A program made the translations under genes and the position numbers. From positions 5,582 through 69,581 of IMG/VR virus record IMGVR_UViG_3300022074_000027: a stretch of DNA of 64,000 nt; one strand, written 5' to 3'. Positions within the stretch are counted from its first letter, which is position 1, and each line of letters opens with the position of its first letter. The stretch comes from a virus. Of the stretch, positions 3,844 through 49,848 are shown piece after piece. A model generated the notes under the pieces. It had not been told where the DNA came from, made no database searches, and was given only the letters and a program-made list of their open reading frames with translations.

Positions 3844-4081
3844 GTTTCTCTTTCTGTAGTTTAGTTAATTCTTCTTGAAGTCTAACTACTGTCATTTGGA
3901 GTGCATGAATTTCCCCTTGCATATCTGCAACGGTTCTTTTCCATGTTTCTTCTCTAGTTTCTTCTATCGTCATGCTACTCTTTCTATAAGAATCTTCTTG
4001 TCTAAGTTTCCAAAGCATCCAATCATAGTATCTTTCTGGCTCTGGGTCTTGAACCACTCTGGAATAGGTCTGTTCTTCCAT
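3827..4081 (-). CDS. hypothetical coiled-coil protein
   Basis: ORF with heptad-like C-terminus; overlaps the upstream gene by about 110 nt. Confidence 0.5.
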   Translation of the reverse strand: MEEQTYSRVVQDPEPERYYDWMLWKLRQEDSYRKSSMTIEETREETWKRTVADMQGEIHALQMTVVRLQEELTKLQKEKLDADI

Positions 4082-4593
4082 GTTGCGAATCTCCTCTTTG
4101 CAACTTTGTAGAGATTACGATACGCTTGAACTGTATCACCCTCAACTAAACACTCTGGGAATTCTTTCATAGCTTGTGGAACTGGAGTGTTACCCATCAC
4201 ACTAGATGGCATATTCTTAGGTGGTTCTCTTAACAACCACCAGTTTTCTTTTGCACCATGTTCTTTCCCATACCTATATGTATATTCGTCACAAATCAAC
4301 TTATAATAAGTAAACATTAACATATAGTTTTCTCGACACATTCGTACCCATATGTTAGTTGGGTGATTCACATGACCAGCAAGATATAAACCTTTATTCA
4401 TCTTTCTATCTGCAAGTTTCCACCGTTTAATCTTATGACCTCTTGCAGTTTTATCATAGAACAATTCACCATCAAGAACCCTATGTGCAGTACTCAACAT
4501 CTGTTTGTACTCTGTAGGCATCTTAACAATGTGTTTATCACAATGATACTCAATTGACTTAAAAGGGTCTTCATCTAAGTAAAAGAAATTCAT
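3970..4593 (-). CDS. pyrimidine-dimer DNA glycosylase/endonuclease V-like protein
   Basis: MNFFYLDEDP...HCDKHIVKM...QMLSTAH, HVNHPTNIW and VQAYR motifs. Confidence 0.7.
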   Translation of the reverse strand: MNFFYLDEDPFKSIEYHCDKHIVKMPTEYKQMLSTAHRVLDGELFYDKTARGHKIKRWKLADRKMNKGLYLAGHVNHPTNIWVRMCRENYMLMFTYYKLICDEYTYRYGKEHGAKENWWLLREPPKNMPSSVMGNTPVPQAMKEFPECLVEGDTVQAYRNLYKVAKRRFATWKNRPIPEWFKTQSQKDTMIGCFGNLDKKILIERVA

Positions 4594-4727
4594 CGGCTGT
4601 ACTTTTCCAAAAGATATTCAGAAACAGTAACACCTTTCTTTTCAGCACGCTTGGTGATATATCCTTTACGTCCATCACTCAATTTTTTGTAGTCTTTTAC
4701 TACATCTTTTGAATATTTTAAGTTCAT
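4590..4727 (-). CDS. small basic protein (45 aa, not in ORF track)
   Basis: MNLKYSKDVVKDYKKLSDGRKGYITKRAEKKGVTVSEYLLEKYSR fills the gap with overlapping start/stop codons. Confidence 0.6.
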   Translation of the reverse strand: MNLKYSKDVVKDYKKLSDGRKGYITKRAEKKGVTVSEYLLEKYSR

Positions 4728-5248
4728 TACTTCTCCCATCTGTAAAATATGTGGTCTGCAATCTCTACCGTTTTAGTTTTAGATTTTCTCCACGCTGGAT
4801 AAACATAGTCAGCATGGTAGTGGGTTGCACCCTCTGTAAAATCTACTATTTGAATATCATCATACACTAAAACTAGTGCTAAGTCAAGTAACCTTTTATA
4901 AGTTGTTGGTTCTTTTGGGTCATCACTTTTACCATCACAGAACCAACTAAATTGACAACGATTCTTTATAGGATAGAAAGTTCCATTTTTCTTCCAAGAC
5001 TCCCTCGTAGGCCCTTGTTCTACCACCCCACAGACCGTGTTAGGATATCTACTATCTTTTACACGATTCATAACCACTAAACTTACTGCAAGTTGTCCAG
5101 CAAGACCTTGATTCCTTGCTTCATAATACATATTCTTTGCAAGACAAGTTGCTTCAGTATGTCTGAATTTATCTACTTCAACTTTATCAACTGATGTAGT
5201 TGCAACTAAAAATGATAATACTACTTCCTTTATCATTTTACTGTCCAC
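4727..5248 (-). CDS. cell wall hydrolase, SleB/Hydrolase_2 family
   Basis: CLAKNMYYEARNQ, VVMNRV, CQFSW, GATHYHA, HIFY. Confidence 0.9.
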   Translation of the reverse strand: MDSKMIKEVVLSFLVATTSVDKVEVDKFRHTEATCLAKNMYYEARNQGLAGQLAVSLVVMNRVKDSRYPNTVCGVVEQGPTRESWKKNGTFYPIKNRCQFSWFCDGKSDDPKEPTTYKRLLDLALVLVYDDIQIVDFTEGATHYHADYVYPAWRKSKTKTVEIADHIFYRWEK

Positions 5249-5493
5249 ATTGAACCAAATGCATCAAGGTATTCTGCATTTGAAGTTTGAAGTGTTATAT
5301 AATCACCAAAGTGAAAATCAAATGTTTTCAATAGATGTATATAATCACCTTGTGTCATTTCATCAAGTATAGTATGATAATTCATACCTAATTGTTGTGC
5401 AAGATTTTTTGCATCACCAAGTAGTGAAAAGGCATTACCCTTTTCACCATCTATATTGATAACAATCTTATCAGTAGGTGTTTTTTCTATCAT
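5233..5493 (-). CDS. hypothetical protein
   Basis: ORF in an early operon, overlapping its neighbours. Confidence 0.65.
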   Translation of the reverse strand: MIEKTPTDKIVINIDGEKGNAFSLLGDAKNLAQQLGMNYHTILDEMTQGDYIHLLKTFDFHFGDYITLQTSNAEYLDAFGSMWTVK

Positions 5494-5819
5494 ACTGATT
5501 CTCCATCTAAAGTTTCAAAACCCATTCGAGCAACTACATACTTTTCAGTACCTAGTAACATCTGGTCACCAACTGAAGTAGACCTTAGACCCATACCACT
5601 AGATATGTCACCGACAACTGTAACATTTGGATTTGCATCATTACCAATCTTTAATGACCAACTACCATGAATGTTATTTGTCCACTTGTAAGCATACTCT
5701 AACTTATCAATAACTGACTCTGCATCATTAGGTATTTCTACAAAAGCAACTGTAGATGGTTTACCCTCAAACGCTGTATGAATAACTGCAACTTGTTCCA
5801 TTTCTCTCTCCATTACCAA
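5490..5819 (-). CDS. hypothetical protein
   Basis: ORF with RSTSVGD motif. Confidence 0.65.
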   Translation of the reverse strand: MVMEREMEQVAVIHTAFEGKPSTVAFVEIPNDAESVIDKLEYAYKWTNNIHGSWSLKIGNDANPNVTVVGDISSGMGLRSTSVGDQMLLGTEKYVVARMGFETLDGESV

Positions 5820-6028
5820 ATTTTAGTTCCATTTTCAGCAGACTTTTGCATTTCAAAAATCTCTGCCTGTTCTATCATGAATTGGTCTTGCATCTCTGCA
5901 TCAACCATACCCACGAAACTCTTAGTCAAGTGTTTCCACTTACTCACAAGAAGATTTGCAGCCTTGTGCTTTTCTTCATCTGAAAGTCGTGCAAGTGACT
6001 CTACGAATTGTTCTGCTGTGATTTTCAT
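5813..6028 (-). CDS. hypothetical early protein
   Basis: Start MKITAEQ after a GAGAGG RBS downstream of the promoter at 6057-6085. Confidence 0.65.
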   Translation of the reverse strand: MKITAEQFVESLARLSDEEKHKAANLLVSKWKHLTKSFVGMVDAEMQDQFMIEQAEIFEMQKSAENGTKIW

Positions 6029-6056
6029 AATATACCTCTCTTTTTTGATTCTATTA

Positions 6057-6085
6057 ATACTACCATGTTTTGATAACAAAGTCAA
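6057..6085 (-). promoter_or_regulatory. sigma70-type promoter with spacer palindrome (P1)
   Basis: TTGACT-17-TAGTAT with TG extension; TGTT-N5-AACA at 6066-6078. Confidence 0.8.
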
Positions 6086-6303
6086 GTCGTTTCTATCATG
6101 CAACCGAAAGTATTTTTCACTACAAAAGTAGTATCTGTACCCTCTGCCATTTCATTTAGAACCATTTTTTCTTCCTCTGCATTACCCAAACATTGATGCA
6201 AAGAAACAATCTCTGGCTGTTTCTCTGATTCACACTTTACAATTGCCCAACCGTCTATCGGATTTCCTACATTGTCAAACATTATATCACTCCATTTTCC
6301 CAA
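6082..6303 (-). CDS. hypothetical protein (start probably 6282)
   Basis: ORF track. Confidence 0.55.
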   Translation of the reverse strand: MGKWSDIMFDNVGNPIDGWAIVKCESEKQPEIVSLHQCLGNAEEEKMVLNEMAEGTDTTFVVKNTFGCMIETT

Positions 6304-6707
6304 ACATCATCTGCAAGTTTCTTTTCCATTCGGTATGCTTCCTTTTCCCAAGGTAAGTCCCAATAGTTAGTATCTTCTGATATCATCTTAGACTTCCATC
6401 TAGCTCTACCTTTTACGATACCATCATTCATTTCATTTCTTGCATACTGTTTTACATGAACCATTTCATGACATAGTGCTTGCACCAAATCCTTAATACC
6501 AATAGACTTATCAAGTTCTATCTCAAATTTTCTATTAGTATCTTGCATCATACAAAATCCAATTGCATCACTCTTGATAGTCACAAGATTAACTTGGATA
6601 TCAAGAGTTCTGAATCTAGGAAGAAGTTTTTTAATCATGTGAGCAACAACCTTATGACAGATTTCTCTCTTTGTGGCGTTACTACCATTTACTTCAACAA
6701 AGTTCAT
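6282..6707 (-). CDS. zinc metallopeptidase-like protein
   Basis: HEMVH (HExxH) with a downstream PWEKEAY. Confidence 0.75.
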   Translation of the reverse strand: MNFVEVNGSNATKREICHKVVAHMIKKLLPRFRTLDIQVNLVTIKSDAIGFCMMQDTNRKFEIELDKSIGIKDLVQALCHEMVHVKQYARNEMNDGIVKGRARWKSKMISEDTNYWDLPWEKEAYRMEKKLADDVWENGVI

Positions 6708-6710
6708 ATT

Positions 6711-7028
6711 TTATGCAGCCTCTTTTGTGGGTTGTAACATTGAAAAGGGAACAGTATAAAGAGCAGTTCCACCAGAGATTGGATTAACTACCATTTCAAC
6801 AATCGCTTTAGTCTTATTGATTTTAGTAACTGTTCCAAGTCTCTTTTTTGTTTTTTGGACAATGTAAACTTTGTCACCAACATTGATACCAGACTTTGCT
6901 TTCATTACTTTGATATCTTGTATCATACTTTGAACTTGTGTAAGTTCTGAAATTGTAAGACCCATTAAGTCTTTTGTGATTTTTTCTACTGTCATAATTA
7001 ACCTCTCATTTCTACAGCATTGTTCCAA
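6711..7028 (-). CDS. hypothetical protein, KOW/SH3-like C-terminus (start probably 6995)
   Basis: INVGDKVYIV...GTVTKINKTKAIV. Confidence 0.6.
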   Translation of the reverse strand: MEQCCRNERLIMTVEKITKDLMGLTISELTQVQSMIQDIKVMKAKSGINVGDKVYIVQKTKKRLGTVTKINKTKAIVEMVVNPISGGTALYTVPFSMLQPTKEAA

Positions 7029-7240
7029 AGATTTTTCGCACCATCATAGTGGTCAAATCCATTCTCATCAGCGAAATCCATTCCACTACAAAACATCACT
7101 TCACCGAAAATCTTTTTAGTATCTAAAATATATGCAAGCATCTTAGGAGTCTTTGCAAACCCAACTTTGTTACCAGCACCGATAAAAACACCGATACCAC
7201 CGTCCATTGCATCAATAAAAACTGTTTCGTTATTTGTCAT
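6998..7240 (-). CDS. hypothetical early protein
   Basis: First ORF after promoter P2, AG-rich leader. Confidence 0.65.
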   Translation of the reverse strand: MTNNETVFIDAMDGGIGVFIGAGNKVGFAKTPKMLAYILDTKKIFGEVMFCSGMDFADENGFDHYDGAKNLWNNAVEMRG

Positions 7241-8936: not shown

Positions 8937-9339
8937 TTACCATATCTGCTAACAAATTCAAATCAACTTTAGTGGTAATGGTGTTCTCTTTATCTTCAGT
9001 AACCGTTTTCACAACGATATCCATAAATGGTTGTATGGGGTGTCTGAAACCAATATCTCTATACAAAATACCTCTAACGACTTCATTAAGAAAACTGATA
9101 TCTCCAATGAATCTTTCATTCTTGATATCTATACCATTCTCACCACAGTTGTGAATTAATCCAATCATCAAACCCTCTGCAAGATTATCTGCAAAATCTA
9201 AATCTTGTTGAGTTTCAGTTGGATTAATATTAACAACTTTAGGTATCCTTTTACCTTTAAATTTAGTTGGAAATTTTATGATATTATTTTCCATTAATAT
9301 CCTAACTCCTGCTTTCGTTTTTGTAGTTTTCTTTCCCAC
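8911..9339 (-). CDS. hypothetical protein (start probably MENNIIKFP)
   Basis: ORF track. Confidence 0.65.
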   Translation of the reverse strand: MGKKTTKTKAGVRILMENNIIKFPTKFKGKRIPKVVNINPTETQQDLDFADNLAEGLMIGLIHNCGENGIDIKNERFIGDISFLNEVVRGILYRDIGFRHPIQPFMDIVVKTVTEDKENTITTKVDLNLLADMVSDKEDDTS

Positions 9340-9569
9340 CTTTTTTTACCAGCTGCTTTTTGTCTTCTTTTCTTTTCACCTCTGGTTCGGTGGGAAGTTC
9401 TTTCACGCAGTTCTTGAAACAAACCTTCTTTCATAAGTTTCTTTTTAAGGACTCTGATAGCACCATTTATATCAGATGTCATGTTACCATCTTTGTCCTT
9501 AACTTGGCGAACTGTAACAGTCATTCCATAGTCTTTTTTATATTTATCTTTCTTTTTAAAGTAACTCAT
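9294..9569 (-). CDS. rpsU: ribosomal protein bS21
   Basis: VTVR...INGAIRVLKKKLMKEGLFQELRERTSHRTRGEKKRRQKAAG pattern. Confidence 0.85.
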   Translation of the reverse strand: MSYFKKKDKYKKDYGMTVTVRQVKDKDGNMTSDINGAIRVLKKKLMKEGLFQELRERTSHRTRGEKKRRQKAAGKKRWERKLQKRKQELGY

Positions 9570-11864: not shown

Positions 11865-12068
11865 TTAACTAAAGTGGTCGCCAGTTTCAATCGCAAAGAT
11901 TTCGTCCTTTGCAATATCAGCACCCATATTTCCAAACTTTGTTTTGATGTCTGTAATCAAATCTTCTTTTGTTTTGATATTTGCATCAGCAACAAAATTA
12001 CCATCTTCGTCAAAAAAGTCCCAAACGGTTTCTTGAACGTCCATCACAAAATTCTTAACTTTTCCCAT
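11865..12068 (-). CDS. hypothetical early protein
   Basis: MGKVKN start, first gene after P4. Confidence 0.65.
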   Translation of the reverse strand: MGKVKNFVMDVQETVWDFFDEDGNFVADANIKTKEDLITDIKTKFGNMGADIAKDEIFAIETGDHFS

Positions 12069-12099
12069 AATTTTCTCTCTTTCTCTTGATTATGTATAT

Positions 12100-12128
12100 A
12101 CTATAACTTGTTTTTATAACAAAGTCAA
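12100..12128 (-). promoter_or_regulatory. sigma70-type promoter with spacer palindrome (P4)
   Basis: TTGACT-17-TATAGT; TGTT-N5-AACA at 12109-12121; 34-nt leader/-10 segment identical to P2. Confidence 0.82.
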
Positions 12129-12134
12129 GGCAAT

Positions 12135-12168
12135 AAAAAACCCTTGTAAATCAAGGACTTACAAGGGT
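12135..12168 (-). terminator. intrinsic terminator after petB (contains an IHF-like site)
   Basis: CCCTTGTAA-N9-TTACAAGGG stem followed by T6 on the minus strand. Confidence 0.7.
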
Positions 12169-12219
12169 CATTTGTTCTAGTTTTATTTGTTTTTGTGTGA
12201 ATCGGTGCGAATCACCGAA

Positions 12220-13425
12220 TCACTCTCTTAAAACTGGTGTTGATATACTTGCTGGCAAAGGTTTTGTTTTTTCAACAAATGGTAGTAGTGGTAATAGAAC
12301 CAAAAAGTGAAAGAAGTAATATGCAGTTGCAATTCTACTTAAAATAACATATAACCCCTCAGCTGGCATTGCACCAAGATATCCTAATGCAATACAATCT
12401 GCAAACAATATCCAAAAGAATATTTTATACATTGGTCTAAATTGTGAAGACCTAATTGGTTGTCTGTCTAACCAAGGTAAAATGAATAGTACCATGATTG
12501 AACCAAACATAAACAACACCCCACCAAGTTTGTCTGGTATTGCTCTAAGTATTGCATAGAACGGTAAGAAGTACCACTCTGGAACAATGTGAGGTGGTGT
12601 AACCATTGGATTTGCTGGAATGTAATTATCTGGGTGTCCCATAAAATTAGGAAAGAAAAATACTGCAGCGGCAAAGAAAGTTAAGAATATACTTAATCCA
12701 AATAAATCTTTTATCGTATAATATGGATGAAATGGAATAGTATCTTGTTTACCGCTGGTATCAATTCCTATAGGATTGTTACTACCAAATCTGTGTAGTG
12801 CAACCAAGTGTAGAATAACAACTCCAACTATTACAAAAGGCATCAAAAAGTGTAGACTAAAGAATCTATTCAGTAGTGCATTATCTACACTAAATCCACC
12901 CCATAACCAAGTAACAAATTGTTCTCCAACTAATGGTATTGCACTAAACAAATTAGTAATAACGGTTGCACCCCAAAAACTCATTTGACCCCAAGGTAAA
13001 ACGTAACCCATAAATGCAGTTGCCATCATCAGTAGTAATATCAATACTCCAAGTATCCAAAGTAATTCCCTTGGTGCTTTATATGAACCATAATATAGTC
13101 CACGAAATATGTGAATATAAACTACTATGAAAAAGAAACTTGCACCGTTCATATGAATATAACGTATTAACCACCCATGATTAACATCTCGCATGATTCT
13201 TTCTACAGAATCAAATGCATAATCAATATGAGGTGTGTAATGCATACTAAGGACTATTCCAGTTACAATCATTATAACTAGAGTAATACCAGCCAACGAA
13301 CCAAAGTTCCAAAAATAATTTAGGTTCTTTGGTGTTGGATATTCGTTGAGTTCATGATTCATGAAAGAGAATATACCAAGTCTATGGTCTATCCAATTCA
13401 CGACTGGATTTTTGAATTTTTTCAT
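12220..13425 (-). CDS. petB: cytochrome b of the bc1 complex
   Basis: WNFGSL; heme ligands in [22 protein letters not shown] and SLHFLMPF...ILHLVALH; [19 protein letters not shown]; PEWY Qo motif. Confidence 0.97.
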
Positions 13426-13426
13426 C

Positions 13427-13852
13427 TTACTGGATTTCAGACAACCACTTCTTTAACTTCTTTTTACTTTTACCAAAAACTTTTGTTTTTGATATTTGCT
13501 TAATATTAGACAAGTCATCACCAACAATAACTAATCCTATCATACCCATAGATTTATGGGGTGTACATTGATATAAGTAGATTCCCTCTCTTTCAAATGT
13601 ATAGGAATACTCTTTATTCATTTTACTTTTTGGTAACTTCTTAATTCCGTCTGGTGCAGAAATAAAATGCACATTATGTCCTTTAGATGCAGGCAACCAT
13701 GTAATTGTATCTCCAACAGCAACTTCTGCTATTTCTTTTGAATATACCATCTTGTTACCGCTTCCGTCTTTATTCAACATATCAATAGTAACATCAGCTG
13801 CATTTGCAGAGAATGTTACCATAACAAATAGTAGTGTAAATAATCTAATCAT
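13427..13852 (-). CDS. pseudoazurin (type 1 blue copper protein) with signal peptide
   Basis: Signal peptide ending ANA; mature MLNK...[27 protein letters not shown] give the His/Cys/His/Met Cu ligands. Confidence 0.9.
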
Positions 13853-13868
13853 AATTTTCCCTTTCATA

Positions 13869-13958
13869 TTATCCACCGTGTCCATAAGTATCATAATCCC
13901 ATTCTGATTTGGATTGTTTACTTACAAATTCATTTTCTTCTTCAGTATAAGGCCACAT
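13869..13958 (-). CDS. 29-aa peptide (not in ORF track)
   Basis: MWPYTEEENEFVSKQSKSEWDYDTYGHGG; TAATG coupling to the upstream gene, GGAG upstream. Confidence 0.5.
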   Translation of the reverse strand: MWPYTEEENEFVSKQSKSEWDYDTYGHGG

Positions 13959-14206
13959 TATTTATTCTCCAACTCGACTAACATTTTGTCATACATTTCA
14001 TTAGTTAAATCATTCATTTTATCTAAATTAAATGACATCTCTTTTACATCTGAAACTGACCTAATTGCTGGTAAGTGACTCATTATTTGTTTATTTGCAT
14101 GAAGTTGTTTACCTCTTTGCAATTCTATTAATACTCTTTGAAACCATTTACTAACGGTTTCACAAATTCTGCAAGTCTCGACATAGACTGCTTCTGCGAC
14201 AGACAT
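13958..14206 (-). CDS. hypothetical protein, first gene of the petB operon
   Basis: AGGAG RBS, CxxC near the N-terminus. Confidence 0.7.
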   Translation of the reverse strand: MSVAEAVYVETCRICETVSKWFQRVLIELQRGKQLHANKQIMSHLPAIRSVSDVKEMSFNLDKMNDLTNEMYDKMLVELENK

Positions 14207-14249
14207 TTATTTCTCCTATTTTTGAAAATGTAGTTTGATACTACAATTA

Positions 14250-14257
14250 TATTTATA
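14250..14257 (-). promoter_or_regulatory. T4-type late promoter TATAAATA
   Basis: Exact match in the intergenic gap upstream of the 14206-petB gene run. Confidence 0.75.
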
Positions 14258-14308
14258 TAAGATATTATGTTTTGATTTGGAAAACTATTGTTTCCTTTTT
14301 GGAATTAA

Positions 14309-14665
14309 TCATCTTGTAAGTTTTTCCCAAGTACTTTTTGTTCTTCTTTTAGTTTTAGGTTGTGGTGCAAAAGACTGTTTAGCTCTTTCTGCTTCTTCTT
14401 TCATTCTTTTTGTTGCTTTCGCTTTATCATCATTTACTTGAAATCTAGATTTTTCACGCATAGAAAGTTGTGCATTAAAATGATTTTTAACTTCCTCTGC
14501 ATTATCTGTAAATTGTAACAAAGTCTTTATAGCAATATATGCATCACCTTTAAACATTAGTCTACCATCACGATATACTGTTCCAGTTCCGTCATCTATT
14601 AATATACTACAATTTTTATGTTTAAACTTCATCTTTGTGCAGTCCGATAAAATATTCTGCATCAA
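14309..14665 (-). CDS. hypothetical protein
   Basis: ORF track; true start probably the internal MKFKHK. Confidence 0.6.
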   Translation of the reverse strand: MMQNILSDCTKMKFKHKNCSILIDDGTGTVYRDGRLMFKGDAYIAIKTLLQFTDNAEEVKNHFNAQLSMREKSRFQVNDDKAKATKRMKEEAERAKQSFAPQPKTKRRTKSTWEKLTR

Positions 14666-14960
14666 CTAAAACCAATGGTTTGTGATTATTTCTTTTCACA
14701 ACTACAATTGGTTCATAGTCTTTGCAATTTTCGACTGCTTGAGAATAGGATTCCCAGATGTTAACTTTTTCTTGATTCTTACATTCAATTGAGTAGGGAA
14801 ACTTCTCTCTTGCAGCCCTTGCCATAATTAAATCTTCACCACCAGCACCCATAGACCTACTTTCTACGTCTTCTGGGTGTACTTTGAGTTCTTCTATTAA
14901 TTGGTCACGAACCCATTGTTGTAATCTTCTACCTTTAGCTTTTGCTGACTGAGTTTTCAT
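14622..14960 (-). CDS. PD-(D/E)XK nuclease-fold protein (resolvase-like)
   Basis: SAKAKGRRLQQ, GAGGEDL, SIECKNQE. Confidence 0.7.
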   Translation of the reverse strand: MKTQSAKAKGRRLQQWVRDQLIEELKVHPEDVESRSMGAGGEDLIMARAAREKFPYSIECKNQEKVNIWESYSQAVENCKDYEPIVVVKRNNHKPLVLVDAEYFIGLHKDEV

Positions 14961-38696: not shown

Positions 38697-39671
38697 TTAC
38701 CCAAAAAAACTTTCTAAGTTATTTTCTTGTTCTTTTGCAACCTTACCAATAAGTCTTTCTGGTTTACCAGCTGAACCCAAAGTTGCTAAACGGTTATCAC
38801 AATATGCAGTAGTGGTATATCTTGTACCATTACCTTTAATATATGTTACACCATGAACCTCATTTGAGTCTGCAATAATTACTGAATTATCTGGAGCGTT
38901 GATTGCAATACCATATCTTGGAAAACAAAGATATGCACCCTCATAATCACCATCTCTAAAACAATTCATTGTTGTTAAACCAGCATCTAAATCACCACTA
39001 TCAACATGAGCAGACATTGCTTTAGACTGACCAATATGATACCTATTTGCAGAAAATGTTGTAAACATACCAACTCTATGTTCTTCTCTTACAAAAGTTT
39101 CAATCCACTTCTTTTGTTTTGCATAAACCTCTGGTAATGCTTTTTCAAATGCTTTCTGATTCCATTTAGATATTTCACTAAAGTTTTCCCACTTCTCTGG
39201 ATTTTCTTTACACCAACCAGCAGTACCAATCTTACCAGTAAATCTACCTCTTTTGTAACCAATCATAACAGAACTAATCTCATTACAGTATGCAATCTTT
39301 CCCCAATCTCCAGATTTAGTTTTCACATAATATGAGTTTGGAGTCCTTAGTTTATAATCAACACCCTCTTTCAAACCCTTTGCTTCCATTTCTTCTTTTA
39401 CAACTGGGCCAGCACAGTTTGCTCTCATAACAGAAACGTCAGAAATACTTTTCAACATTTCTTTTACTGAATCATCTGGGTAAACATTAGTTACAACTGC
39501 AGCTAATGGTGCATTATCTCCATCAATAGTTTTAAATGGTTTATATACTCTTACATCTTCATCTGTAACTGTTAACAATTCATCATATGAATCATCACCT
39601 AAAAACTTACCATTCCATTGTGCATAAGTTTCTTTTTTACCTAAGTCCTTCTTAGCTATATACGTTTGCAT
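38697..39671 (-). CDS. TET/JBP-like 2OG-Fe(II) dioxygenase
   Basis: FTTFSAN...SAHVDSGD...GAYLCFPRYGIAI...ADSNEVHGVT...RYT; overlaps a C5-MTase gene. Confidence 0.78.
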   Translation of the reverse strand: MQTYIAKKDLGKKETYAQWNGKFLGDDSYDELLTVTDEDVRVYKPFKTIDGDNAPLAAVVTNVYPDDSVKEMLKSISDVSVMRANCAGPVVKEEMEAKGLKEGVDYKLRTPNSYYVKTKSGDWGKIAYCNEISSVMIGYKRGRFTGKIGTAGWCKENPEKWENFSEISKWNQKAFEKALPEVYAKQKKWIETFVREEHRVGMFTTFSANRYHIGQSKAMSAHVDSGDLDAGLTTMNCFRDGDYEGAYLCFPRYGIAINAPDNSVIIADSNEVHGVTYIKGNGTRYTTTAYCDNRLATLGSAGKPERLIGKVAKEQENNLESFFG

Positions 39672-40866
39672 TTTTAGTCTCCTTATATGGTTTTAGTATA
39701 TTATTATAAATGTTGTTTGATAAGTAGTGCATACAAAGTGGTGCAACCATCAATCCTATTCGTGCAAGATTTTCATTTAGTTTACCAGTAAGTTTATAAT
39801 CTTCTGGAAGTGTCATAATCCTTGCAGCCTCAAGTGTAGTATAAACTCTATCTTCCTCTGGATGTAAATGAACACCAAGTGAAGTTTGTAAACCTTGTTC
39901 AGACAAAGTATGACTTGGTTGATTCCAAGGTACTCTTCTTGATTGATAGAAACTATTTTTTCTCTCTGGTAACACTTTACCTCTTTTCTTTCTATGTTCA
40001 ATCCACTTGTCAAACCAAGGGGTCACTACATCATCTCCAACTGAAACGACTTTATCTGGATTCTTTGGTAATCGTTTCATCCACTTATATTTAGCGCTTT
40101 TCTCCATAGCCATTCTTAAATCATATGCTTCAGACATATTTTGGTTTGTCTTTTGCAAATCATTAATTGCATCATGTATAGTATGAACATCTGTATCTGG
40201 CTCTGGATAAACAGTACTATCTAAACACATAAACGGTAATCCTATATCATCCATAACATCATTACGAACTGATACAATAAACACTCTTTCTCTTTTTTGT
40301 GGAACACCATAGTATTGACCTTTCATAACTCTAAACACAGTTGTGTATCCACACTTTTCAAAGTCATTTACCATTCTTTGTAAATGTTCTTTTGCATATG
40401 TCATTGTAAGACCTTTTACATTTTCACACACAACTACTTTAGGTTTTAATTCGTTTGTAATACGAATCTGTTCCCAAGTCAAATCTTCAATATTCTTTTG
40501 TTTAACACCATATGCAGTTTTCTCTTTACCCCAACCTGCTTGTTTAGTACCAGACATTGAAAATGGTGGACAAGGTGGAGAACCATCAAGTATGTCTAAC
40601 TCTCCAACTTTAAGACCAGTAAGTTCCATAATCTGTTTACCAGTAACATTTCTTATATCACCACATATGTTTGGTGTTCCTGGCCAGTTCGCAAGATAAT
40701 CTTGCATTGCAACTTTCTGAAACTCATTTACAAATAAACATTGTCCACCAGATAGTTTATAACCACTAGATGAACCACCACCACCAGAAAAAAAAGAAAT
40801 ATAAGTAAACAGTTTTCTATCTGCTGACTTTTGTAAATCATCTAGTGTATAACGAAAATATCTCAC
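39652..40866 (-). CDS. DNA cytosine-C5 methyltransferase
   Basis: FSGGGG (motif I), GSPPCPPFS (IV), ENV (VI), PQKRERVF (VIII). Confidence 0.93.
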   Translation of the reverse strand: MRYFRYTLDDLQKSADRKLFTYISFFSGGGGSSSGYKLSGGQCLFVNEFQKVAMQDYLANWPGTPNICGDIRNVTGKQIMELTGLKVGELDILDGSPPCPPFSMSGTKQAGWGKEKTAYGVKQKNIEDLTWEQIRITNELKPKVVVCENVKGLTMTYAKEHLQRMVNDFEKCGYTTVFRVMKGQYYGVPQKRERVFIVSVRNDVMDDIGLPFMCLDSTVYPEPDTDVHTIHDAINDLQKTNQNMSEAYDLRMAMEKSAKYKWMKRLPKNPDKVVSVGDDVVTPWFDKWIEHRKKRGKVLPERKNSFYQSRRVPWNQPSHTLSEQGLQTSLGVHLHPEEDRVYTTLEAARIMTLPEDYKLTGKLNENLARIGLMVAPLCMHYLSNNIYNNILKPYKETKNANVYS

Positions 40867-48441: not shown

Positions 48442-48470
48442 ATCTTACCATGTTTTCAAAACAATGTCAA
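48442..48470 (-). promoter_or_regulatory. sigma70-type promoter with spacer palindrome (P6)
   Basis: TTGACA-17-TAAGAT; TGTT-N5-AACA at 48451-48463. Confidence 0.8.
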
Positions 48471-49476: not shown

Positions 49477-49848
49477 CTATGCAACATTTCTTAATGTTCT
49501 TGACCTATCTGGGTGTCTTAACTTTCTTAATGCTTTAGCTTGGATAGAACGGATTCTTTCTCCTGTTACACTAAATTGTTGTCCGACCTCTTCTAAAGTA
49601 TGGTCAGTATCCATACCAATACCATATCTCATTCTTAGGACTCTTTCTTCTTTAGGAGTCAAAGTTGATAAGACTTTTGTAATAGCTTCTCTTATTTCAA
49701 AATCTAAAACTTCAGGCATTTCATAAGTATCTTCTAAAGTTTCAAATGACTCAAAAGGTTCTTTCTCATACTTGTTAAATAAATTTGTTCTATCCATATA
49801 TCTATTTCTAAAAACGCCTGGGGTCATAATTTTTCCTTTCTCTTTCAT
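49477..49848 (-). CDS. stand-alone sigma70 (RpoD) region-4 protein
   Basis: [55 protein letters not shown]; no regions 1-3. Confidence 0.88.

Follow-up and report, generated by a model that had tools for sequence, protein, structure and literature searches.

What would a bacteriophage do with a gene for cytochrome b, the core membrane subunit of respiratory complex III (the bc1 complex), and with a second gene for pseudoazurin, a soluble blue-copper electron carrier? The question is raised by IMG/VR record IMGVR_UViG_3300022074_000027, a viral record of 69,581 bp with a CheckV completeness of 46%. Its positions 5,582 to 69,581 form the whole stretch analysed here, called the window (64,000 nucleotides), and all coordinates below are those of the window. 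In it the two genes follow each other within one transcription unit of a T4-like myovirus. Inferring function from the genes and their surroundings, we consider it likely that the phage cytochrome b supplements complex III of the host during infection, alongside the pseudoazurin, and that the two are separately acquired genes which have been stacked in a single slot of the phage genome.

The cytochrome b gene is intact. Its product matches PF00033 (2.3e-78, residues 28-214), PF00032 (6.6e-45, residues 270-371) and PF13631 (1.2e-46), and residues 18-386 align with hardly a gap to cytochromes b of known structure from mitochondria and alphaproteobacteria (8bel, 2.1e-156; 2yiu from Paracoccus, 8.9e-148). 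The original prediction, made from the letters of the window, had described a full protein of 401 amino acids with four haem-ligand histidines, the motifs PEWY and WGATV, and a histidine and a Lys-Asp pair at the Qi site. All of these were found. The putative haem ligands are His91, His105, His192 and His206 (within HMNGAS, HIFRG, SLHF and LHLVALH), WGATV lies at 151-155 and PEWY at 282-285, and the putative Qi residues His211 and Lys239/Asp240 (IKD) are kept. The roles of these residues at the haems and at the Qo and Qi sites are presumed from the usual bc1 numbering, together with the near-gapless alignment to solved structures. Among the substitutions specific to the viral copies are RLP to RLG near residue 16 and PFVGES to PLVGEQ. 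The extreme C-terminus is 16 amino acids shorter than in most relatives; this loss lies downstream of the last matched helix. There is no internal stop within the match in the window record, and the full-length viral copies that were taken into the trees discussed below are all open reading frames.

Purifying selection on the phage cytochrome b is as strong as in cells. The ratio of nonsynonymous to synonymous change (dN/dS) is 0.079 against the copy in contig L002 (dS 0.18), 0.091 against L009 and 0.103 against L003, while other viral pairs give 0.025-0.057 and cellular pairs, treated by the same method, 0.014-0.077. The original prediction had been wary of relaxed selection, and the values over viral pairs (0.03-0.10) resemble those of cells. 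For the viral copies of pseudoazurin dN/dS is 0.04-0.30, and by this measure both genes are kept in working order.

The subunits with which cytochrome b works in cells do not accompany it. Neither a Rieske protein (PF00355) nor a cytochrome c1 (PF02167) was matched across the whole 69,581-bp record, so that what had been said of the window extends to all of the record as far as it is complete. The same two families gave no match in any of the five viral records that bear cytochrome b (5/5, 611 kb in total; the other four are of 82-172 kb, and all are fragments). No c-type cytochrome, haem-copper oxidase or multicopper oxidase was matched in the window's record. PHROGs v4 has no family for cytochrome b, and in the GenBank phage collection it was found only at the end of one Helicobacter prophage record.

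The record itself is unmistakably that of a T4-like myovirus, with hallmark genes on both sides of the slot. Structural hallmarks are the gp23 capsid protein, a T4-type portal and a scaffold; for replication there are a gp43 polymerase, a gp41-type helicase, a primase and exonucleases, and the record also encodes a clamp, a clamp loader, a RecA/UvsX-like protein, a UvsW-type helicase, Hsp20, PhoH and two cell-wall hydrolases. A class II-like ribonucleotide reductase (RNR) and a RusA-like resolvase adjoin the unit with cytochrome b and pseudoazurin. All long open reading frames (ORFs) of the window lie on the - strand, including those next to the two genes, which bears out the earlier statement that ordinary phage genes flank the pair on the same strand. 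Base composition is even along the window (GC 0.28-0.40; about 33% for the phage overall). By polymerase, the nearest cultured phages are the Melnitz phages of Methylophilales (67%), followed by cyanomyophages (~56%).

How the two genes came to lie together can be read from the unit in which they stand. From its upstream end to its downstream end, it is made up as follows.

14250..14257, - strand: TATAAATA, a T4-type late-promoter-like motif, 51 nt upstream of the start of the 82-amino-acid gene
13958..14206, - strand: first gene of the unit, a phage hypothetical protein of 82 amino acids, with an AGGAG ribosome-binding site
13869..13958, - strand: ORF of 29 amino acids (MWPYTEEENEF...WDYDTYGHGG), whose start overlaps the stop of the 82-amino-acid gene (TAATG)
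13427..13867, - strand: pseudoazurin, 146 amino acids from the ATG at 13867, PF00127
12220..13425, - strand: cytochrome b of the bc1 type (petB/fbcB), 401 amino acids, long form with the C-terminal domain fused, PF00033 and PF00032
12196..12222, - strand: 3' element from the stop codon on (TGATTCG...CACCGATTC..., with short GATTCGC-like repeats)
12139..12169, - strand: intrinsic terminator with a 14-pair stem and a 3-nt loop, then the T-run TTTTTATT; fold -19.2 kcal/mol
12100..12128, - strand: sigma-70-like early promoter TTGACT-17-TATAGT, 10/12 matches, directly after the terminator

The original prediction had drawn one unit from an exact TATAAATA to a terminator, and both ends were located. 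It was right about pseudoazurin and cytochrome b as members of the unit; the two leading genes, of 82 and 29 amino acids, it had missed. The 29-amino-acid ORF stops 1 nt ahead of the pseudoazurin ATG at 13867, and the junction between pseudoazurin and cytochrome b reads TAA-G-ATG, again with 1 nt between stop and start, as predicted.

The slot was compared in 13 syntenic relatives that cover both flanks, the window making 14; contig L002, whose upstream flank is cut off, is outside this count. The shared order is primase, reductase, RusA-like gene, 118-amino-acid gene, 82-amino-acid gene, the slot, 67-amino-acid gene ... S21. In 10/13 relatives the slot holds pseudoazurin alone, in 2/13 cytochrome b alone (L003 and L031, whose cytochrome b proteins are identical to each other), and in 1/13 both (L009); with the window included, these become 10/14, 2/14 and 2/14. 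Where pseudoazurin is alone, the gene ends ...TTG TGA TTCGCACCGATTCGCA, followed by the terminator and the TTGACT promoter. In the window the same tail of 3' element, terminator and TTGACT promoter stands after cytochrome b, and hence cytochrome b was inserted between the end of pseudoazurin and the 3' tail of its cassette. The 3' element at 12196..12222 marks the boundary of the insertion: cytochrome b was added to an older pseudoazurin cassette. The terminator also occurs in L159, L160, L179 and L205, where a G-C to A-T change affects both arms of its stem. In L003 and L031 there is a short ORF that resembles the signal peptide of the L009 pseudoazurin, and this is possibly the remnant of a lost pseudoazurin.

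In PMC2839356, the hyperplastic regions of T4-type phages are described as containing PeSL (promoter-early stem-loop) cassettes, in which a terminator stem-loop adjoins a strong sigma-70-like promoter. The same make-up was found here, with the terminator at 12169-12139 and TTGACT-17-TATAGT at 12128-12100, at the edge of a slot whose content varies among relatives. The slot differs from the described cassettes at its opposite border, which is formed by a late-type motif and not by a second PeSL, and here the cassette is a candidate for recombination.

The linkage of the two genes does not depend on the source assembly. The arrangement recurs in the IMG/VR contigs L002 (98% and 96% identity for the two proteins) and L009 (93% and 86%). 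Contigs from run X5 cover 12078-12625, 13148-13861 and 13832-14700 with no differences, and contigs from run X9, of another study than X5, cover 12094-12287 and 13124-13555; both cytochrome b junctions are therefore bridged outside the source assembly, and the continuity that the original prediction had assumed is real and not chimeric. Two oligo-dT RNA libraries of one study also hold contigs over the junction between pseudoazurin and cytochrome b (X15, 13336-13488, one difference; X16, 13343-14170, eight differences). Gaps in the coverage of cytochrome b by RNA-library contigs carry no weight, as holes in contig data prove nothing. Two features of the library mapping were considered and set aside. 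Three apparent skips have short sides (20-26 nt) in the most conserved part of cytochrome b and probably come from other organisms, and a depth peak at 12964-13060 is cross-mapping of the conserved cytochrome b region.

Several smaller observations concern the signals and leading genes of the unit. TATAAATA is a putative late promoter of the T4 type, with the motif in the -10 position. It is invariant in a four-way alignment and stands 51-60 nt upstream of the 82-amino-acid gene in 13/13 syntenic relatives. Its count in the window is not above chance (5 seen against 8.4 expected); all five copies, however, share the coding strand. Those at 14250, 34793 and 60910 are some 30-45 nt ahead of a ribosome-binding site and start codon, and one of these three precedes the scaffold gene. 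The 82-amino-acid gene precedes the slot in 13/13 syntenic relatives. Its protein matched no Pfam or PHROG family; in the ESM Atlas it comes closest to clusters made up solely of viral hypothetical proteins (scores 0.83-0.86), which is no more than a lead. Homologues of the 29-amino-acid ORF are seen in L009, L003 and L031 when these are aligned with the window. The early promoter TTGACT-17-TATAGT precedes the next gene, which starts at 12068. A family of such promoters, with the pattern TTGACTTTGTT..AACA....TA..T, has -35 elements starting at 6085, 7299, 11438, 12128, 47850 and 49472 on the - strand; 18 promoter-pattern hits were obtained in the window, six of which begin with TTGACTTTGTT, and two near copies are found at 48470 and 49886.

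Where the phage cytochrome b came from is a question for phylogeny. IMG/VR has 76 loci that encode relatives, and compared with the protein of the window 38 are 86-98% identical and the remaining 38 are 55-67% identical. When each species is represented by a single genome, the nearest cellular copy is that of L078, a single-cell genome that bears the label 'SAR116 cluster' (88% identity; GC of the locus 30.5%). Other SAR116-labelled genomes are 79-80% identical in cytochrome b, and Pelagibacteraceae 65-68%. In a tree of 159 rows a single clade, placed next to L078, unites the window with the viral loci of high identity (support of 98 in the Shimodaira-Hasegawa-like approximate likelihood ratio test, SH-aLRT). 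In a careful tree of 39 rows the viral clade (100/98) is sister to L078 (100/98) within the SAR116-labelled group (97/94), and monophyly of the 15 named viral rows was not rejected by the approximately unbiased (AU) test (p = 0.89). With the viral clade placed inside a cellular one, the phage gene is host-derived by this phylogeny. Synonymous sites are saturated between the phage gene and that of L078, which means that the 88% identity reflects constraint and not recency, and also that the gene is not freshly mis-assembled host DNA. SAR11 was considered as the donor and rejected; the Pelagibacteraceae copies, at the identity given above, form a separate clade.

In L078 cytochrome b is part of a petABC (fbcFBC) operon and has the same long form and the same catalytic residues as its viral sister. 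The surroundings are different. A Rieske gene (PF10399 and PF00355) lies upstream of it and a cytochrome c1 gene (PF02167, 1e-95) downstream, neither of which is in the phage record, while the phage copy is under phage regulatory signals and has the shortened C-terminus. The viral clade spans several backgrounds, namely the lineage of the window, a lineage with a 737-amino-acid reductase that is ~33% identical to the window's, and the lineage of L005; by replication genes, the loci at 86-98% fall in at least two backgrounds. These relationships fit a single uptake from a cell and later exchange between phages.

The 38 low-identity loci (L033-L055, L058, L060, L061, L063, L064, L066-L071, L073-L075 and L077) are a different matter. 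The 29 of their full-length copies that entered the tree form a clade of their own on a long stem (SH-aLRT 100, stem 0.48), and on this evidence the group looks like a separate, older capture. It includes a contig with a giant-virus label as metagenome-assembled genome (L075), and a record of the group, G013, is classed as a provirus. On L063, an IMG/VR contig of 43.5 kb with a CheckV completeness of 12%, a NuoB-like gene (PF01058, 1.2e-27), SufB (PF01458, 7e-79) and cytochrome b lie head to tail at 4008-7215. This is either a virus with several respiratory and iron-sulfur genes or cellular DNA that has been filed as viral.

The phage probably infects an alphaproteobacterium of low GC and of the SAR116-labelled type. 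That its host belongs to the alphaproteobacteria is supported independently by a permuted two-piece transfer-messenger RNA (tmRNA) of alphaproteobacterial type at 460-817 on the - strand (Rfam RF01849, 111.6 bits, and RF04321, 117.1 bits; tmRNA* in ARAGORN). Its tag, ANDNNAYVDYAQAA, is closer to the L078-type tag ANDNYAPVAAAA than to the Pelagibacteraceae tags ANNKFALAA and ANQKFALAA. One copy of TATAAATA, at 783-790, lies at the 5' end of this tmRNA. A homologue of ribosomal protein S21 is encoded at 9294-9569 on the - strand (PF01165, 1.8e-7); among the cultured phages in the collection only the Melnitz phages share it (47%), and PMC7029224 treats S21 as an auxiliary gene of pelagimyophages. 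When a 20-kb phage stretch was compared with five candidate host genomes, the only match was a stretch of ~200 nt in sigma-70 region 4, which is 70-74% identical over that length to three of them. A 123-amino-acid protein at 49477-49848 on the - strand consists of little beyond sigma-70 region 4 (PF04545, 2e-17), and it could be a host-derived sigma fragment for transcription takeover.

The other occupant of the slot is a pseudoazurin. The longest form of its ORF is 13427..13894 on the - strand (155 amino acids), and the starts at 13867 or 13852 are likelier than that at 13894. It matches PF00127 (1.8e-16), and the sole PHROG matched is phrog_515, 'PetE plastocyanine' (2e-8). The best 22 distinct matches in the PDB are all pseudoazurins or 'blue copper protein', with E values from 3.6e-23 (1bqk) to 5.9e-19, while other cupredoxins score worse (amicyanins 1e-12, plastocyanins 4e-8 or weaker). 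The PDB alignments extend to query residue 139-145 and thus take in the Lys-rich C-terminal extension. A signal peptide and all four copper ligands had been predicted; the ligands are all present. In the 146-amino-acid form the type-1 ligands are His64, Cys101, His104 and Met109, with GHNV and CTPHKSMGM aligning with the ligand motifs of 1bqk; the hydrophobic N-terminus ends ...FSANA before ADV, and ADVTIDML aligns with residue 1 of mature 1bqk, so this N-terminus is a putative signal peptide. The protein is probably exported to the periplasm, to judge from this prediction. In the alignment of the full mature length, in the His/Cys/His/Met ligands and in the putative signal peptide it is like the bacterial pseudoazurins of known structure (1bqk; 1paz; 1adw/3erx/4bwt), from which it differs in being encoded by a phage.

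IMG/VR has 191 stretches with relatives of this pseudoazurin, and a large protein collection contains 5,173 proteins related to it; the GenBank phage collection gave none by tblastn at 1e-5. The best copies in candidate hosts are 57% identical (L078-type), 59% (another SAR116-labelled genome) and 55% (Pelagibacteraceae), the best copies of the SAR116-labelled genomes ranging over 53-59%. Pseudoazurin has therefore long been resident in phages. The neighbourhoods of viral pseudoazurins were taken from the best 80 of the 191 stretches. Here the commonest neighbour on the same strand is a small membrane protein of the DoxX family (PF07681, 2.2e-8; L232:6452-6880), seen at 19/79 loci. As to cellular partners, the classical one is NirK, but the L078-type genome, which is incomplete, gave no match of this type. 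At L237:32-1926, in a SAR116-labelled genome, the genes ahead of pseudoazurin encode a sulfite-oxidase-like molybdoenzyme (PF00174 and PF03404) and a c-type cytochrome, a hint that pseudoazurin may have some partner in cells besides bc1 and NirK.

What the two genes might do together can be put as a series of steps. Pseudoazurin is the older occupant of the slot, with the late-type promoter upstream and the terminator and early-promoter cassette downstream. Cytochrome b was most likely transferred once, from a SAR116-type cell to phages, and later spread between phage lineages; its insertion exactly between the pseudoazurin stop and the 3' element of the cassette has placed both genes on one predicted transcript. 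During infection the phage cytochrome b would enter the host membrane, take up host haem and join the host's Rieske protein and cytochrome c1, giving new or renewed complex III while host gene expression is shut down. Secreted pseudoazurin would carry single electrons through the periplasm, at the acceptor side of complex III and probably in the direction of an aerobic oxidase. In this way respiration and the supply of ATP might be upheld through virion production. An aerobic role of pseudoazurin fits the L078-type genome, which, incomplete as it is, encodes c-type cytochromes as well as a haem-copper oxidase and gave no match to NirK-type proteins.

The pair looks like a respiratory counterpart of the photosynthesis genes of cyanophages. 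As with psbA/psbD, petE and PTOX in T4-like cyanomyophages, a marine T4-like myovirus has genes for a core membrane subunit of host origin and for a soluble blue-copper protein that carries electrons, in a variable region and under purifying selection; unlike those, the present genes concern the respiratory complex III of a heterotroph and not a photosystem. Cytochrome b also resembles auxiliary metabolic genes in general, being host-derived, located inside a bona fide phage genome and under purifying selection. The original prediction knew of no characterised phage operon of petB and pseudoazurin. Literature searches, which covered main texts, likewise found no description of a phage-encoded cytochrome b or pseudoazurin; supplementary tables such as Table S5 of PMC7029224 could list such genes. 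The main text of PMC7029224 on pelagimyophages and of PMC9004378 on Melnitz is without cytochrome, plastocyanin or azurin. The nearest precedent is a virome study of 2013 (PMC3877843), which reports K00412 reads in uncontaminated viromes, without genomic context.

Phage genes for photosynthetic electron transport have changed the modelling of ocean primary production, and an equivalent for the respiration of heterotrophs is absent from the literature searched. Both genes are widespread in uncultured ocean viruses (76 IMG/VR loci for cytochrome b, 191 stretches for pseudoazurin) and absent from the cultured phage genomes of the collection searched. If it is true that the phage cytochrome b joins host subunits, infected cells of an abundant group of bacterioplankton would respire through a partly viral complex III, which would bear on estimates of carbon remineralisation. 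It would also be a natural system for the entry of a lone core subunit into a pre-existing membrane complex. Since the slot is polymorphic, holding either of the two genes by itself or the pair, it offers a ready natural comparison. A more ambitious version of the idea can only be put forward tentatively, and we would not expect it to hold in full. According to it, marine alphaproteobacterial phages would rebuild the acceptor end of the host respiratory chain, with phage cytochrome b seeding complex III together with host Rieske protein and c1 and the phage copper carrier taking electrons onward; this virocell-specific, iron-sparing path would set burst size in an iron- and energy-poor surface ocean, and cytochrome b would be a mobile cassette that is gained and lost with local conditions.

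A number of points weigh against a supplementing role for the phage cytochrome b. It is dispensable at the population level: L160 has an RNR and a primase that are 98% identical to those of the window, yet no cytochrome b, and L159, with flanks that are 95-100% identical, lacks it as well. This suggests that any benefit depends on conditions. In other viral lineages an exact TATAAATA was found within 400 nt upstream of cytochrome b in 0/65 loci, so that late timing is not a general trait. A completeness of 46% leaves room for petA and petC elsewhere in the genome. If the host were SAR11, with its cytochrome b 65-68% identical, assembly of the complex would be heterologous, and some of the host evidence is indecisive. 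The tmRNAs are too divergent to decide the host (tmRNA DNA gave one match of 35 nt), and S21 carries no host signal: its identity to the copies of three genomes is 35-39%, and the L078-type genome gave no match to it. The RNA contigs over the junction may come from DNA carried over in the oligo-dT libraries that contain the stretch; flanking genes are covered too. Cytochrome b is not known to be turned over as fast as D1, and the analogy with psbA is thus without its usual rationale. The intactness of the genes, their phage surroundings, the layout of the insertion, the host origin and the purifying selection are shown, while expression timing, assembly with host subunits, the path of electrons and the benefit are all inferred.

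The strongest competitor to two stacked genes of which cytochrome b supplements complex III is a co-adapted module of two parts, in which a complex III with phage cytochrome b would feed specifically the phage copper carrier, as an iron-sparing bypass of cytochrome c. The original prediction leaned this way in treating petB and pseudoazurin as belonging together. Cytochrome b and pseudoazurin do serve one and the same step of respiration, a single nucleotide separates their genes within one late-type unit, and the pair recurs in L002 and L009. In addition, L005, from a 131.6-kb record of a different phage lineage, has a pseudoazurin 2.9 kb from its cytochrome b. Against this stand the counts, by which the notion of a conserved module fails. 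The slot contains both genes in only one of the 13 relatives, with pseudoazurin alone in ten and cytochrome b alone in two. Among the ten large viral cytochrome b records besides the window's, a cupredoxin is found in one (that of L005), and in the best 80 of the 191 pseudoazurin stretches cytochrome b is also present at only two loci, L158 (the L002 contig) and L221 (the L005 contig), L009 being known separately. Moreover, the bc1 complex contacts its soluble carrier through cytochrome c1 and not cytochrome b, so a special pairing would have to run via a host subunit. The pair in the window is two juxtaposed cassettes and no conserved functional module, and we regard co-adaptation as rather unlikely.

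Much less probable is that cytochrome b is a neutral or near-neutral passenger, shuffled into the hyperplastic slot by PeSL-type recombination and of no benefit to the phage. Its presence in some and absence from others of near-identical phages would agree with this, as would its position next to a stem-loop and early-promoter cassette of the type that is reported to mediate shuffling (PMC2839356). A passenger would hardly be expected to keep a dN/dS of 0.03-0.10 over viral pairs whose synonymous sites are near or at saturation, to be free of stops in the window and open in all full-length viral copies extracted for the trees, and to be held in a clade that spans several phage backgrounds. Slightly less probable again is a role against the host or against rivals, as a dominant-negative subunit, a membrane depolariser for the timing of lysis, or a block to superinfection. 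A lone subunit without partners might suit such a role, and the late-type promoter motif would put the product near lysis; still, all catalytic residues are kept under the same constraint as in cellular copies, and a decoy would need neither intact Qo and Qi sites nor four haem ligands. That the locus is an artefact, by chimeric assembly or by host DNA mis-binned as viral, can be dismissed for practical purposes: although it comes from a metagenome contig and its cytochrome b is 84-91% identical to many cellular-looking proteins, the arrangement is common to three independent IMG/VR contigs (the window's, L002 and L009), contigs of two further studies span both junctions, base composition is uniform, the regulatory tail 3' of cytochrome b is the phage's own, and synonymous sites are saturated against the nearest cell.

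Elsewhere in the window, the DNA polymerase gene is closely followed on its downstream side by one for a C5 cytosine DNA methylase (PF00145, 7.5e-53), which adjoins a Tet/JBP-like 2OG-Fe(II) oxygenase (PF12851, 3.2e-7, which is below the Pfam cut-off) at 38697-40866 on the - strand, and the two may be a pair for DNA hypermodification.

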